Shown here: piece by piece, positions 1 to 4,655 of the stretch | Layout of the letters: each line of letters opens with the position of its first letter | Position numbering within the stretch: the stretch's first letter is position 1 | Virus record (IMG/VR): IMGVR_UViG_2671180458_000007 | DNA: 4,655 nucleotides | Direction: 5' to 3' (one strand) | Source of the DNA: a virus | Lineage: Duplodnaviria; Heunggongvirae; Uroviricota; Caudoviricetes | The notes under the pieces: model-generated | Seen by the model: only the letters and a program-made list of their open reading frames with translations | The model's database searches: none | What the model was told of the DNA's origin: nothing | Position numbers and translations under genes: made by a program

Positions 1-310
1 ATTTTGCGTTATCGGGAATATCGGGAAGTGACCGCCGCAGCCGTTCCGGCTTCGTCCACTGGTAAGTATTTTTCGCGCTCTCCCTCCGTTGTTGAGAACG
101 GCGGCGGTATGCCAGCAACGCAAGGACGCATGTTCGTATGTTGCACATATCCACGCCGTTAAGCTCAATACCATCACGGCGCATCACCTCAGCAACCACA
201 CGCGCATAATTTTCGGCGGTCACGCTGTCCGGCTGCGTGGCCTGTTCGTCAGCCTGCTGGCTGATTCCGGCGACGCGGCGGATTAATCCCAGTATTTCGG
301 CTTCTGTCAT
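1..310 (-). CDS. Hypothetical protein, partial (N-terminal 103 aa in window; 3' end lies beyond the left edge)
   Basis: ATG is the reverse complement of 308-310 and the frame stays open to position 1 (begins MTEAEILGLIRRVAGISQQADEQ...). A G-rich Shine-Dalgarno-like GGGGG sits 4-9 nt upstream. It follows the terminator and promoter cassette downstream of the capsid gene. No recognisable motif; lying downstream of a capsid gene it could be a head-tail connector or adaptor, but that is speculation. It is not in the supplied ORF track because it has no stop inside the window. Confidence 0.5.
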   Translation of the reverse strand, partial: MTEAEILGLIRRVAGISQQADEQATQPDSVTAENYARVVAEVMRRDGIELNGVDMCNIRTCVLALLAYRRRSQQRRESAKNTYQWTKPERLRRSLPDIPDNAK

Positions 311-567: not shown

Positions 568-2457
568 TCAGAGTGAATCTGTCCCGCCTGATTTGACCAT
601 ACCGCGATAATCCAGAGCTGCCACACCTGCATCAATACGGACTTTCCAGGCCACGCCGTCAACGATAAAACCTTCCTGCTGTTCAAGGTAAGGCTCGTCA
701 TTGCCATCAAGATAAGCCACCTCGATTGTGTCCGTTCCCTGTGCGGAAAGCATGTACCATTGTTTTTCGCTGATATCATCAAGGCGGGGATCGACGATGA
801 TATCAAGTAGCTTGTGGTACGGGTTAAAGATCCCGCTGTTTTTATCAGCCCCGAAAGGTGCGGTTGAGTTAATCATCTGCAACGCGCGATCTTCCAGTGC
901 TGCCGGAACTAAAAGGAATTTAGGCGCAATATTCAGCACTTCGCCATTTTTGTCCTTCTGTGTGCGCATCAGGTGACGTGCTGCACTAAGTCCCGGTGTT
1001 GTCAGTCCTGCTTCAATCAGGTTGCTGTGTTTTTTGTCAAACAGCGTTATTCCGTCAGAAAGTTTTACGTTGCCTGTAAGCACCAGATTAACCAGATTTC
1101 CCACCGTTCTTGATGCTGCACGGCCCATAGCCATTGGCACCGTTGATAACTGATCAAGGTCATCATTGATTATCGCCTGGCGGGTAATGCTGAAAATATT
1201 CCCGTAAGTAGCCAGCGCGATGGGTTCACCGCGATCGCTGGTGGTGATGTATTTATATTCTGCCCCTTCCGGAACTTTGTTTAACGTTGAGAAGCCATTC
1301 ATACCAACGCGGCGGGCTTCCCGGAAGTTTGAAAGGGAACCTTTTTTCGTCCACTGGCGGAATGTTTCGCCGCTGTGCTCCCAGCCTGCAAGCACTGATT
1401 TTTCAGCGCCACCAGCAAGGATATCGGTAAAATCGCTGCTGCTGTGGGTGAATGCCGCGTTTACTATCTGCGAGCGTGTGCTGTAGCTGCCCGTGCTTAT
1501 ACCACGATGGGTTAATGATGCCTGTGCCATATCGAAAAGGCTCATCATGGCGTAAGGATTACCGCGTTCGGCCCGTTCGTGACCAAGACGCGCATTAAGC
1601 CCCTGACGCATGGCATCGCCAGTTATATTGCCGTTATCCGTGTACGCGTAGTAAAGATTTGCGGGGGTGGTTTTGTTTGTTGGCGTTGATTCTTTACCCA
1701 TAGCGAGTAAAAGGCGTTCGCGTGCATTCTCAACGCTACATTCTGAATCCGCAAGACAACTTATAGCCAGGTCGTTATATCTTCCGTTGAAGGTGCCAAA
1801 CAATTCACGGATGCCGTTAAGTCGTTCCTGTTCGCCACTGCCAGTTTTCTGGCTGATCATGCTTTTAATTTTTTCCGGCATATTTGAAAAATCTCCGATT
1901 CGTTTTGATTCAATTCGGGCCATTGCTGTAATCGCGGGTATAACCTCATCTGCGAAACCGTTAGCCTTACACTCATTGCCATCCATCCAGGTTTCCGCCT
2001 CCATCATGGAGGTGATTTCCTGTTTGCTCCTGCCCGTTCTTCCGGCATAGGTTTCTGCCATCGTGTCGCCCAGCTTGTCCATCAGATCAGCAAAGCGGCG
2101 AACGTCGCCCGACACTCCGGCAGTAACACCACGGGGGGCATGTATCATCATCATCGCGTTTTCAGGCATAACGATATGATCTCCACACATGGCAATAAAC
2201 GAGGCCATAGAAGCCGCCATGCCTTCAATGTGTACGATTTTTTTTGCCGGATGATTTTTCAGAGCGTTATAGATAGCCAGCCCTTCAAAGATGTCGCCAC
2301 CAGGTGAATGGATGCGAAGATGGATTTCAGACGCATTACCACACGCGTTGATCTCGTCAGTAAGTGCCGATGCTTTTACACCGTACCCGCCGATCTCGTC
2401 ATAAATGCGCACATAGACAACATCTGCCATAGCCTTAATGGAAAACCATGTTTTCAT
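568..2457 (-). CDS. Prohead protease / major capsid fusion protein: N-terminal ClpP-family (S14) serine protease domain, linker or scaffold-like region, C-terminal putative major capsid domain (629 aa)
   Basis: Long intact ORF. The N-terminal ~190 aa carry ClpP signatures visible in the translation: HSPGGDIFEGLAIYNAL (ClpP INSPGG...AG.AIYD motif), GMAASMASFIA (active-site Ser motif G.AASMG), MMIHAPRG (active-site His motif MIHQP). The remaining ~430 aa are too long for a protease alone. Assigning them to a capsid domain rests on known ClpP-type prohead protease-capsid fusions in prophages, not on a motif I can verify by eye. ATG at 2455-2457 is preceded by AGGGG about 7 nt upstream and overlaps the upstream ORF stop (ATGA). 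Confidence 0.85.
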   Translation of the reverse strand: MKTWFSIKAMADVVYVRIYDEIGGYGVKASALTDEINACGNASEIHLRIHSPGGDIFEGLAIYNALKNHPAKKIVHIEGMAASMASFIAMCGDHIVMPENAMMMIHAPRGVTAGVSGDVRRFADLMDKLGDTMAETYAGRTGRSKQEITSMMEAETWMDGNECKANGFADEVIPAITAMARIESKRIGDFSNMPEKIKSMISQKTGSGEQERLNGIRELFGTFNGRYNDLAISCLADSECSVENARERLLLAMGKESTPTNKTTPANLYYAYTDNGNITGDAMRQGLNARLGHERAERGNPYAMMSLFDMAQASLTHRGISTGSYSTRSQIVNAAFTHSSSDFTDILAGGAEKSVLAGWEHSGETFRQWTKKGSLSNFREARRVGMNGFSTLNKVPEGAEYKYITTSDRGEPIALATYGNIFSITRQAIINDDLDQLSTVPMAMGRAASRTVGNLVNLVLTGNVKLSDGITLFDKKHSNLIEAGLTTPGLSAARHLMRTQKDKNGEVLNIAPKFLLVPAALEDRALQMINSTAPFGADKNSGIFNPYHKLLDIIVDPRLDDISEKQWYMLSAQGTDTIEVAYLDGNDEPYLEQQEGFIVDGVAWKVRIDAGVAALDYRGMVKSGGTDSL

Positions 2458-2648
2458 AGCCAGACCCCTAACGTTGCCCTGTACCAGTATTCAACCGCGC
2501 TGCGTGTGATTTGTCCTTTCGTGGGTACTGGCATACCCGGGTGATTATCTTTGATGAACTGCTGATAGCGTTCGATCTTCTCCATAGTTCCGGCGTCTAT
2601 GTGTACCGTGGCACTTTTATCCGGCTTTCTGGTGTTGTTCTCTGGCAT
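2454..2648 (-). CDS. Small hypothetical protein (64 aa), translationally coupled to the protease-capsid gene
   Basis: The ORF track gives 2454..2681 (75 aa, MMPVNQ...), but that start has no Shine-Dalgarno. The internal ATG at 2646-2648 (MPENNTRKPDKSATVHIDAGT...) has GGAGG (reverse complement of 2656-2660) 7 nt upstream, so I prefer it. The TGA stop overlaps the capsid ATG (ATGA at 2454-2457). Function unknown. Confidence 0.6.
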   Translation of the reverse strand: MPENNTRKPDKSATVHIDAGTMEKIERYQQFIKDNHPGMPVPTKGQITRSAVEYWYRATLGVWL

Positions 2649-2722
2649 AAATCCGCCTCCGTTTTGATTAACGGGCATCATTATTGATCGATAAAAGTAA
2701 TAGATAAATCATTTTCTACCTG

Positions 2723-2879: not shown

Positions 2880-2903
2880 GCGCCTGTTTTTTGTAAATGT
2901 TTT

Positions 2904-2917
2904 CGGGAACGTTCCGG
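2904..2917. promoter_or_regulatory. Palindrome cGGGAACGTTCCgG, candidate dimeric regulator binding site
   Basis: Perfect 10-bp palindrome GGAACGTTCC at 2906-2915 with partly symmetric flanks. It lies in the promoter region between the upstream terminator (3076-3098) and the capsid operon and is absent from the otherwise similar region A. Confidence 0.35.
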
Positions 2918-3000
2918 TGATGAACAAAAAACAACCTGATTCGACACTAAAAATTTTTATTTCTCAACATATCAATAACTTATAGTGGTGGTGATGGTGC

Positions 3001-3098
3001 CATAAAAATCAAAAAATGCGCCTTTTTCCGCGCCCTCCCGCCCCGTGTACAGGCCCACCCCACCAGGAGGACCCGCAAAAAAGCCGGATTGCTCCGGC
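3001..3098. repeat. Copy B of the ~100 bp conserved intergenic cassette (first copy at 464-561)
   Basis: See copy A. It sits immediately 3' of the stop of the 3106-3378 gene and ends in a terminator hairpin. Confidence 0.7.
3076..3098 (-). terminator. Rho-independent terminator after the small regulator-like gene
   Basis: On the minus strand: GCCGGA-GCAA-TCCGGC hairpin followed by TTTTTTG, 8 nt after the TAA stop at 3106-3108. Confidence 0.7.
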
Positions 3099-3105
3099 TG
3101 TGTGA

Positions 3106-3378
3106 TTAGCTGTCCTGGTAATTGCGCCATATTTCATCACCAGCACCATCTATACCCATTTCGGCACAAGTGCGATTAACTGCATTTCTCAGGTCTCCGA
3201 AATTATCAGGCGGCTCCGGTGGCCTCTGTGCCTTCCTGGAACATTCCAGCCGTCGCATCGTGATGTGATGCCGTTCCTTGTCTGTCTCCACCAGCATCAT
3301 GACTTCACCCCATCGCGCCGCCGCCCTCCGGTAAAATCCTTTCGCTTCGAGTTCTTCCGCTATGCGGTCATGTACCAT
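3106..3378 (-). CDS. Small basic protein (~90 aa), possible PerC-like transcriptional regulator
   Basis: The ORF track gives 3106..3498 (130 aa), but that start overlaps the ssb 3' end by ~110 nt. The internal ATG at 3376-3378 (MVHDRIAEELEAKGFYRRAAARWGEVMMLVETDKERHHITMRRLECSRKAQRPPEPPD...) lies 10 nt after the ssb stop and has GAGGGGG 5-6 nt upstream. The PerC-like call rests on recalled resemblance of the N-terminal region and is unverified. Confidence 0.55.
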   Translation of the reverse strand: MVHDRIAEELEAKGFYRRAAARWGEVMMLVETDKERHHITMRRLECSRKAQRPPEPPDNFGDLRNAVNRTCAEMGIDGAGDEIWRNYQDS

Positions 3379-3388
3379 CGTCACCCCC

Positions 3389-3799
3389 TCAGAACGGAAT
3401 ATCATCACCGTAAGGGTCATCGCCTCCCGCTGGTGGCTGATTACCCTGTGTGCCTGTGGTTTTGCGTCTGTTCCCGCCTGGTCGCACCGTTTTCGCACTG
3501 ATTACGCTGTCGGCAATGACCTGATAACCCTGACGCGTCTCCCCGTTCTGTCCGGTCCACTGGCTTATCTGCATCACGCCGGATACGCTGATTACGTTGC
3601 CTTTCTCATGTCCTGCCAGTTGGTCGGCCTGTTTGCCAAATGCGATGACCGATAACCATAACGTCGCCTGTCCGTCCTGTGCCTGACTGCATGGCAGTGA
3701 TACCGCCATACGCGCCAGCGTCATCGGTGTGCCCTTGCTGGTCTGTTTTACCTGCGGGTCGTCCACCAGCCGCCCGTAAGCGGCTATCTGTGCTGTCAT
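3389..3799 (-). CDS. ssb: Single-stranded DNA-binding protein (SSB), compact 136-aa form
   Basis: The translation ends in DPYGDDIPF; the acidic DDIPF terminus is the conserved SSB protein-interaction tail (E. coli SSB ends DFDDDIPF). It is preceded by a Gly/Pro/Gln-rich linker and an OB-fold-like core (LWLSVIAFGKQADQLAGHEKGNVISVSG...QWTGQNGETRQ, compare E. coli [30 protein letters not shown]...KWTDQSGQDR). Good Shine-Dalgarno GGAGAGGTG upstream of the ATG at 3797-3799. Confidence 0.88.
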   Translation of the reverse strand: MTAQIAAYGRLVDDPQVKQTSKGTPMTLARMAVSLPCSQAQDGQATLWLSVIAFGKQADQLAGHEKGNVISVSGVMQISQWTGQNGETRQGYQVIADSVISAKTVRPGGNRRKTTGTQGNQPPAGGDDPYGDDIPF

Positions 3800-4041
3800 G
3801 ATTTCACCTCTCCGGTTTTAACGTTGATGGTTGTTACCTGTTCCGCTTCGGCAATCTCCCGCTCTGTCAGCGTGGCAAAGTTTGCAGCTGCCGTTGTCAT
3901 GAATGCGCTAATCAGTTCGGGATGTGCTTTCGCATATCCTTCCCCGGCGTTGCGGTCGATGATTTTTATCGACACCCTTAACCAGTGTTCCGTCAAATCA
4001 AGGGCGTGCGATTGTGATTTTTTTGTGTGCTTCGCTGTCAT
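3796..4041 (-). CDS. Hypothetical protein (81 aa), translationally coupled to ssb
   Basis: ORF MTAKHTKKSQSHALDLTEHWLRVSIKIIDRNAGEGYAKAHPELISAF... with ATG at 4039-4041. Its TGA stop overlaps the ssb ATG (ATGA at 3796-3799). The Shine-Dalgarno is weak. It is the first gene downstream of the iteron array. Function unknown. Confidence 0.6.
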   Translation of the reverse strand: MTAKHTKKSQSHALDLTEHWLRVSIKIIDRNAGEGYAKAHPELISAFMTTAAANFATLTEREIAEAEQVTTINVKTGEVKS

Positions 4042-4085: not shown

Positions 4086-4314
4086 CCTTCACCTGTTCAC
4101 CTTTTGATATTTTATCTTTTAATTCATAATGTTAAGGGGTGAACAGTTTCACAAAAACTATTCACCAACTATTCACCACTGTTCACCCTTGAAGCTCAAT
4201 AAACAATCAAAAAGGTGAACAGTGAATAGTTTGGTGAACAGTTCATAAATAACTGTTCACCCTATAATATACTGATATAAAAGATATTTATGACAGAGTG
4301 AACAGTGGTGAACA
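4086..4314. repeat. Iteron array: ~11 copies of TGTTCACC/GGTGAACA (P4 type I iteron sequence) with AT-rich flanks; candidate crr- or ori-like cis replication site
   Basis: Exact or one-mismatch octamers at 4086, 4094, 4159, 4170, 4180, 4254 (TGTTCACC orientation) and 4138, 4214, 4222, 4233, 4297, 4307 (GGTGAACA orientation). Several are spaced 10-11 bp apart. Two ~50 bp imperfect direct repeats (4138-4188 and 4214-4262) each run from GGTGAACAGT to CTGTTCACCC. AT-rich stretches at 4101-4136 and 4262-4296. The array ends 15 bp from the stop of the flanking gene. Confidence 0.8.
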
Positions 4315-4328
4315 GTTATTCCATAAGT

Positions 4329-4655
4329 TTAATTTTTGCTATCGTCATTAGTGACCGATACACATGACGGCATCCAGTCTTCTGATTCCTCCGTCAGTTT
4401 CACGTTTGAACGCAAACCGTGCTTCGTTTTCCGTTTCATATACTCCCTGCCATATTCCGCCATTGCCCCCGGCATATCTTTACCGAAGCGCGTCAGTGTT
4501 ACAGGTTTACCAAACCCATGTGCCTTCATATAAGCCAGATAGGCATGATAGAGATACCTGCGCGGGCTGAATGGCACAATTTCAGCATTACCCACTAACA
4601 GGCCATCACACATTACCGACGACATGAGATAGCCGCAGAAGTCCACCAGCGAATC
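4329..4655 (-). CDS. C-terminal part of a replication protein, probably a P4 alpha-like primase/helicase (partial; 5' end beyond the right edge)
   Basis: The minus-strand frame is open from the window edge (…DSLVDFCGYLMSSVMCDGLLVG...) to TAA at 4329-4331. The first start codon in the window is a GTG, so the real start is presumably upstream of the window. The identity is inferred from context: in P4 the alpha gene is immediately followed by the crr iteron region that its C-terminal domain binds. No primase motif is visible in this fragment. Confidence 0.6.
   Translation of the reverse strand, partial: DSLVDFCGYLMSSVMCDGLLVGNAEIVPFSPRRYLYHAYLAYMKAHGFGKPVTLTRFGKDMPGAMAEYGREYMKRKTKHGLRSNVKLTEESEDWMPSCVSVTNDDSKN

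Follow-up and report, generated by a model that had tools for sequence, protein, structure and literature searches.

Gram-negative phage-inducible chromosomal islands (PICIs) already replicate independently of their helper phage through a replication gene and origin of their own (rep-ori) (PMC6092414). Helper induction, replication and high-frequency transfer have been shown for two of these islands, EcCICFT073 (PMC6092414) and EcCIEDL933 (bioRxiv 10.1101/2022.09.08.507074), both relatives of the element described here. Mageeney et al. (2023) grouped SSB, the protein that binds single-stranded DNA, with Primase and DUF5906 in the "Replication" category of PICI families, which colocalised with mapped origins (PMC10111431). 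Beyond this family listing, we found no literature on the function of a PICI or satellite SSB; SSB goes unmentioned in the foundational PICI papers and in the SatelliteFinder paper. A paper on PolA-SSB primases of Gram-positive elements (PMC10061031) is unrelated. Here we describe the SSB gene (ssb) on a 4,655-nt stretch of DNA, called the window below, from the Caudoviricetes virus record IMGVR_UViG_2671180458_000007 in IMG/VR. We consider it likely that this gene encodes a bacterial-type SSB of a Gram-negative PICI replication module, with an accessory role at the replisome.

Neither the gene nor its family is new, since the SSB is already annotated in RefSeq and SSB is already a listed replication-zone family of Gram-negative PICIs. 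The lineage is a common, conserved and ordinary part of a known element class. Its value is that it is very common, that it travels with satellite primase-helicases across the Enterobacterales, and that it has no close relative among sequenced phages.

The ssb gene and its product

The ssb open reading frame (ORF) occupies positions 3389-3799 of the window on the minus strand, exactly as first noted, and consists of 136 codons plus a TGA stop at 3389-3391. Its translation reads MTAQIAAYGRL...GGDDPYGDDIPF up to the stop, and the full protein of 136 aa is MTAQIAAYGRLVDDPQVKQTSKGTPMTLARMAVSLPCSQAQDGQATLWLSVIAFGKQADQLAGHEKGNVISVSGVMQISQWTGQNGETRQGYQVIADSVISAKTVRPGGNRRKTTGTQGNQPPAGGDDPYGDDIPF. This protein is identical to RefSeq WP_033882727.1, "single-stranded DNA-binding protein", and the RefSeq coding sequence has the same coordinates. 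The Escherichia coli strain JNEC-KY174 (NZ_AP045170.1) matches the gene at 100% nucleotide identity and the window at 99.1%. A Shine-Dalgarno sequence, GGAGAGGTG, lies at 3805-3813 on the minus strand, within the 3' end of the upstream ORF (orf81), where the minus strand reads ...CCGGAGAGGTGAAATCATG. Read from the sequence, it stands 5-7 nt before the ssb ATG; the coding strand before the start is CCGGAGAGGTGAAATC-ATG, and the ATG overlaps the stop codon of orf81 as ATGA.

The original prediction had called the product an element-encoded compact SSB with a canonical acidic tail, to be doubted if profile searches failed to support an OB-fold SSB. The profiles do support it. Pfam PF00436 (SSB) matches the protein with an E-value of 6e-16 and 58.8 bits against a curated cut-off of 26, NCBIfam TIGR00621 with 57.8 bits against a cut-off of 53.95, and PHROG 44 (single strand DNA binding protein) with an E-value of 1.5e-37. 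The ratio of nonsynonymous to synonymous substitution rates (dN/dS), calculated pairwise by the Nei-Gojobori method for five ssb orthologues, ranges from 0.13 to 0.33 and is similar in the OB core and the tail. The gene is under purifying selection.

The predicted structure agrees with the profiles. From 16 homologues, AlphaFold2 models residues 1-103 with confidence, at block values of the predicted local distance difference test (pLDDT) of 82-93. The model places strands at residues 2-11, 16-19, 25-36 and 44-54, a helix at 55-62, and strands at 69-82 and 88-101. This beta1-3, helix, beta4-5 topology is that of a five-stranded OB fold with a helix between strands 3 and 4. When the model was compared with the PDB using Foldseek, the top 50 matches were SSBs without exception (at a probability of 1.0 and with target TM-scores of at most 0.80), including Staphylococcus aureus SsbA/SsbB and the SSBs of Bacillus subtilis, Coxiella and E. 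coli (1EYG). Structural matches in BFVD include many phage SSBs of 120-160 aa. Three of the four aromatic residues that stack on single-stranded DNA (ssDNA) in E. coli SSB, W54, F60 and W88, correspond to W48, F54 and W81 here and are invariant or nearly so among homologues. The fold, the Foldseek matches and these kept aromatics delimit an OB-fold core at residues 1-103 (3491-3799, minus strand).

The remaining residues, 104-136, are modelled as disordered (pLDDT <50) and divide into a linker and a tip. Composition, disorder and insertions and deletions among homologues mark residues 104-126 (TVRPGGNRRKTTGTQGNQPPAGG; 3422-3490, minus strand) as a basic linker of 23 residues with an isoelectric point of 12, four lysine or arginine residues and no aspartate or glutamate. 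Residues 127-136 (DDPYGDDIPF; 3392-3421, minus strand) form the acidic C-terminal tip. The tail is canonical as described, since its last five residues, DDIPF, are those of the E. coli SSB tip. Compactness holds as well: the protein has 136 aa against 178 aa in E. coli, and the shortfall lies mainly in the linker (23 against 56 residues). Among 120 close homologues, the tip ends in DDIPF in 76 and DNIPF in 26, so that 102 carry D[DN]IPF; in the wider compact clade the consensus is PFDDDIPF. Linker length changes by insertions and deletions across homologues while core and tip are conserved, a pattern that reads as the signature of a functional SSB tail. Taken together, the profiles, the predicted fold and a disordered linker with a Pro-Phe tip assign the protein, at the sequence level, to the bacterial SSB family; of the stacking aromatics, three of four are kept.

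Two further motifs set this SSB lineage apart from chromosomal SSBs. Pro-Cys (residues 36-37, about 3689-3694) sits at the position of E. coli W40 and is invariant in close homologues. SARTVRP (residues 101-107, about 3479-3499) follows the last strand and is conserved across the wider compact clade.

The satellite and the spread of its SSB lineage

The ssb gene is part of a packed, co-oriented minus-strand string that comprises a primase-helicase gene, an iteron origin, orf81, ssb, perC and a terminator. The primase-helicase is represented by its 3' end (4329-4655, minus strand), which runs off the window and matches Pfam Pox_D5 (E-value 2e-12) and PHROG 864 (DNA primase). Its full-length orthologue has 605 aa with D5_N, DUF5906 and Pox_D5 domains. 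The replication origin, placed at 4093-4315 by repeat count and position, is an AT-rich stretch that holds ten GGTGAACAG iterons, some in each orientation. With up to one mismatch allowed, GGTGAACAG has 11 matches against 0.91 expected, and ten of them fall within this interval; the region holds both inverted and direct repeat families. Mapped PICI origins likewise lie downstream of the primase gene (PMC6092414). An intrinsic terminator, found as a hairpin with a T-run by a terminator scan and as a hairpin in the RNA fold (3082-3099, minus strand), is predicted to end the primase-ssb-perC transcription unit.

By sequence-level criteria, the carrier of ssb is a Gram-negative PICI of about 10 kb. 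The original prediction of a mobile, satellite-type carrier is borne out by the PICI organisation of annotated relatives. These relatives are 94-99% identical and contain the whole element: an integrase, a helix-turn-helix regulator in the AlpA position, Icd-like and DUF4222 genes, the primase, ssb, perC and capsid genes, without lysis or tail genes. One strain has the element beside yejM, at a tRNA-Pro gene; in another strain, clpS and cspD flank it and a tRNA-Ser gene is nearby. At a third locus, L002 (E. coli O157 FDAARGOS_293, NZ_CP022050.2), the satellite lies at about 11700-21900, with the window equivalent at 12001-16377, and is inserted in the large-terminase gene of a lambdoid prophage, whose fragments lie at 10533-11663 and 21999-23003. 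Mageeney et al. (2023) describe such a satellite inside a prophage as a "helper-embedded PICI" (PMC10111431). Two other loci with the same SSB lineage, L005 and L006, have a full set of head and packaging genes (for capsid, protease, portal, head-tail connectors, HNH, TerS and TerL). In place of such a set, the window-type element has only a protease/capsid fusion and small ORFs, and thus falls outside the capsid-forming PICIs.

The window also contains a non-coding direct repeat of about 110 nt in two copies, at 452-562 and 2989-3099, which are 75-80% identical; a wider alignment extends over 340-600 and 2880-3140. Each copy begins directly after a stop codon on the coding strand (that of the capsid fusion and that of PerC, respectively) and opens with a terminator hairpin whose stem sequence differs between the copies while the pairing is kept. 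The conserved stretch after the hairpin reads GCGGGTCCTCCYGGTGGGGTGGG...ACACGGGGCGGG.GGCGCGGAAAAARGCGCATTTTT. The repeat is 88-92% identical to the intergenic region between the lysis and small-terminase genes of Shiga toxin (Stx) phages and other lambdoid phages, including VT1-Sakai and the prophage around the O157 satellite (L002:23600-23714), for which two the identity is 90-92%. This intergenic region is where the lambdoid cos lies. Since both repeats match it, the satellite would appear to have two cos-like regions of the helper type, with 2.5 kb between them. Related islands, that of strain ATCC 25922 among them, have a single cos-like region, directly after ssb.

The SSB lineage is widespread. 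In E. coli, 1132 of 5426 complete genomes (about a fifth) carry it, with up to six matching places per genome, and 1396 of the 1397 matching places are chromosomal. Plasmids carry it rarely (35 of 72,556 records). Among 50,697 phage records, there was no close relative of the window SSB (best identity 31%, no Escherichia phage among the matches), which shows only the absence of relatives of this particular SSB. With a best phage identity of 31%, a recent phage origin of the lineage could not be shown. An exhaustive profile-free search of 1.84 billion cluster representatives returned 294 clusters at E <1e-10, mostly proteins of 125-150 aa, which have in common an end of the PFDDDIPF type and the motifs YGRL..DP, LWL.V.AFG and SARTVRP.

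A scan of one genome per species, made with an alignment of 8 close sequences and a single N-terminal pattern that biases the loci toward Enterobacterales, recovered 37 loci from about two dozen Enterobacterales genera and a few alphaproteobacterial or other metagenome-assembled genomes. At 35 of the 37 loci, ssb is preceded by a large co-oriented ORF (351-1110 aa) whose end lies 15-2347 bp away, and the distance is under 800 bp in 30. Pfam matches in these upstream ORFs were Toprim_3 in 27, Zn_Ribbon_Prim in 26, DUF927 in 22 and D5_N/DUF5906/Pox_D5 in 8; by these domains, most of the ORFs are mobile-element primase-helicases. Integrase, AlpA-like and Icd-like genes lie further upstream at many loci. 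A PerC homologue is found downstream of ssb at 13 of the 37, directly downstream in most. The same SSB lineage is present in the EcCICFT073-like island of ATCC 25922.

The replicase next to this SSB is not always of the same kind. Capsid-forming PICIs with the same SSB lineage have an AAA_25 RepA-type helicase as replicase. Only about 19 substitutions (dS 0.10) separate the SSBs of loci L003 and L005, while the replicases of these loci, a D5_N/DUF5906/Pox_D5 protein of helicase superfamily 3 (SF3) (L003:14305-16122) and an AAA_25 RepA-type protein (L005:10186-11583), share only their N-terminal ~125 residues. Since near-identical SSBs accompany replicases that have only this domain in common, ssb is a module that is exchanged without regard to the helicase core. 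Co-evolution of the SSB and its replicase as a specific pair is therefore rejected. The shared N-terminal domain is 74% identical, has no Pfam match, and could be an origin-binding or partner-binding module.

What the SSB may do for the island

In the accessory replisome role that we favour, a helper phage would induce the island and transcription would run through the replication genes. The island helicase-primase would open the iteron origin, and the island SSB would coat the unwound and lagging-strand ssDNA. The host-type tip would recruit host proteins that read it, such as the chi subunit of Pol III, PriA, RecQ and Exo I. Additional SSB would be at hand when SOS induction together with helper and satellite replication raises the demand, and this is a plausible benefit of carrying the gene. 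The SSB would then boost copy number or replication speed, while standing outside the minimal replicon.

Several observations weigh against this role. In DH5alpha, the cloned rep gene and ori of EcCICFT073 supported replication of a plasmid that apparently lacked ssb (PMC6092414). If the construct was as described, rep and ori are sufficient, so the island SSB would be accessory rather than required, and host SSB can serve in its place. The protein also departs from E. coli SSB at two positions: W40 aligns with the invariant Cys37, which leaves three of the four stacking aromatics, and the tetramer-interface residue His55 aligns with Leu49. With these two replacements, both the way the protein binds DNA and its oligomer state may depart from what is established for E. 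coli SSB. We infer ssDNA binding, oligomeric state and partner binding from the sequence, and our literature search found no functional experiments on the window SSB or its close relatives. Finally, near-identical SSBs behind different helicase cores argue against a specific SSB-replicase partnership, although not against a generic role.

One alternative is that the SSB acts mainly in conflict, as a decoy or shield against systems, of the host or of a rival element, that recognise foreign SSB or ssDNA, as an abort trigger in cells with certain defences, or by titrating host SSB partners away from the helper, which depends on host SSB. The original prediction had raised competition with host or helper SSB. 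Because lambdoid helpers rely on the SSB of the host, any competition would involve that protein and not a helper SSB. That foreign SSBs trigger some anti-phage systems, as the original prediction also held, agrees with the literature, in which phage SSBs are documented activators of Retron-Eco8 (PMC13402713) and DARNA (bioRxiv 10.64898/2026.02.22.705581). A role in conflict would also suit a lineage that is essentially confined to integrated satellite-type elements, without a close relative in the phage records, and a gene that is exchanged between elements with different replicases and that the minimal rep-ori replicon appears to do without. However, a scan of the SSB, orf81, PerC, orf75 and the left-end ORF against PADLOC-DB gave nothing at E-values up to 0.01, and there is no adjacent defence gene. 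The position of ssb, fixed beside the primase-helicase and origin in most of the 37 loci, is what one would expect of a replication gene and not of variable accessory or defence cargo. Moreover, the capsid-forming PICI EcCIEDL933, which probably carries this SSB judging from like-sited elements at L005 and L006, left helper titres unreduced (bioRxiv 10.1101/2022.09.08.507074). We regard a role mainly in conflict as unlikely.

A related idea, which we think quite unlikely, is that the compact lineage is a satellite-specific adaptation that goes beyond ssDNA coating, either by biasing the host partner network (chi, PriA, RecQ, Exo I) or by serving as a decoy or trigger in immunity. The features of the lineage are the conserved Pro-Cys in place of the W40 loop, the SARTVRP junction, the short basic linker and the host-type tip. 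If it were true, host SSB partners would be drawn to the island and away from a helper that depends on host SSB; alternatively, the SSB would divert or set off SSB-sensing immunity, Retron-Eco8 or DARNA for example.

The SSB could also serve satellite recombination or repair, by protecting ssDNA ends after injection or cos cleavage, in circularisation, or in concatemer formation before packaging. Many phage SSBs belong to recombination modules, a tip of the host type would attract RecQ, RecJ, RecO and Exo I, and ssb ends immediately before a cos-like sequence. Against this, no recombinase of the Erf, RecT, Sak or Red-beta type lies near ssb in the window or in annotated relatives, and the constant neighbour is a primase-helicase, which makes a primary role in recombination improbable. 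Neither the conflict role nor the recombination role has positive support, because no defence model matched and ssb has no recombinase neighbour. That ssb is a decaying passenger or a mis-called ORF without present function is scarcely credible: some database copies are truncated and the rep-ori construct apparently replicated without the gene, but selection and synteny contradict this reading, with dN/dS of 0.13-0.33 in core and tail, the tip kept in 102 of 120 close homologues, the presence of the gene in those 1132 E. coli genomes and, with conserved synteny, in many other genera, and a strong Shine-Dalgarno sequence with a start/stop overlap with the upstream ORF.

Other features of the window and comparison with known systems

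The 81-aa ORF upstream of ssb, orf81 (3796-4041, minus strand; from the ORF list), matches PHROG 1231 (unknown function) with an E-value of 1e-49. It has 163 homologues without a Pfam domain, and E. coli and Shigella account for nearly all of those listed. In ATCC 25922, ssb is preceded by a copy that is 73% identical. The AlphaFold2 model of orf81 is a helical hairpin of low confidence (pLDDT 67). This ORF precedes ssb in islands with a D5 primase, and unrelated small ORFs take its place in capsid-forming PICIs.

Downstream of ssb, perC (3106-3378, minus strand) encodes a PerC-family regulator (Pfam PerC, E-value 1.6e-41; RefSeq coordinates). It starts 10 nt after the ssb stop and has its own Shine-Dalgarno sequence, GGGGGTG. 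A GTG-extended 130-aa version of this ORF (3106-3498) was judged spurious, as RefSeq starts PerC at the ATG at 3378. Two plus-strand ORFs across ssb (3362-3655 and 3265-3501) were also judged spurious, being without family support. The perC gene is absent from the element copies of O157, O121 and O111, which match the window in two pieces. PICI PerC homologues have been described as leaving LEE (locus of enterocyte effacement) expression unaffected or as repressing it (PMC11773190).

Profile matches identify a ClpP-like prohead protease/major capsid fusion of 629 aa at 568-2457 (minus strand), the sole recognisable head gene of the window-type satellite; a small ORF from the ORF list lies at 2454-2681 (minus strand). 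The fusion is 50-55% identical to the (frameshifted) fusion of the helper prophage around the L002 satellite. It is 99.4% identical to the copy in the L002 satellite itself, while the two satellites share only about 86% nucleotide identity in ssb, so the modules are mosaic. The left-end ORF (2-310, minus strand) is without a stop codon inside the window; in relatives it is a hypothetical protein of 93 aa. The best-matching genome has a copy with another C-terminal third, and the match to that genome ends at window position 27; the window element therefore has a different left end or junction. Scanned against Rfam with permissive settings, the whole window gave only sub-threshold chance matches (microRNA models on the iterons and a ctRNA-like terminator), none of them meaningful in or near ssb.

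Compared with E. coli SSB (P0AGE0; PDB 1EYG, 1EQQ), the window SSB has the same OB fold with its helix, residues equivalent to W54, F60 and W88, a tail that is disordered and the DDIPF end. The two proteins are nevertheless only 26% identical, and the window SSB is 42 residues shorter. Its linker of 23 residues is basic, whereas the 56-residue linker of E. coli SSB is rich in glycine, glutamine and proline. Its L23 and L45 loops are shorter, and Cys37 and Leu49 stand for W40 and His55. The enterobacterial SSB subfamily model NF006533 scores it at 26.8 bits against a cut-off of 260.

The SSBs of conjugative plasmids, such as F Ssb, offer a second comparison, as they too are a mobile element's own SSB with a host-type acidic tip. 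The F plasmid Ssb can substitute for a defective chromosomal ssb. Plasmid SSBs have about 175-180 aa and are encoded in leading regions, whereas the window SSB adjoins a primase-helicase and an origin. Membership of the plasmid SSB subfamily (NF010292/PRK13732) was rejected at 24.1 bits against a cut-off of 265, as was membership of PriB (TIGR04418, PriB_gamma) at 18.3 bits against 72. Short phage SSBs (PHROG 44, and many BFVD entries of 120-150 aa) have the same fold and a size similar to that of the window SSB. The window lineage differs from them in that its best identity to a phage SSB is 31% and in that it travels with satellite primase-helicases.

The closest described system is EcCICFT073, the prototype of the Gram-negative PICIs. 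Its SSB (WP_000126698.1, NC_004431.1 1384538-1384948) is 92% identical, has 136 aa and ends in the same DDPYGDDIPF tip. The gene order is also that of the window, with a D5-type primase, an origin, an 85-aa ORF, ssb, perC and capsid genes. The two islands differ in their integration sites, since EcCICFT073 lies between roxA and phoQ in strain CFT073, and in their late modules, since EcCICFT073 has a lambda E-type capsid and a decoration protein where the window has the ClpP-protease/capsid fusion. These EcCICFT073 capsid and decoration genes match c1499 and c1500 as named in PMC6092414. With its 92% identical SSB copy and its established genetic and helper system, EcCICFT073 is well suited to asking whether satellites need an SSB of their own, and it could likewise show whether satellite SSBs matter for SSB-sensing defence.

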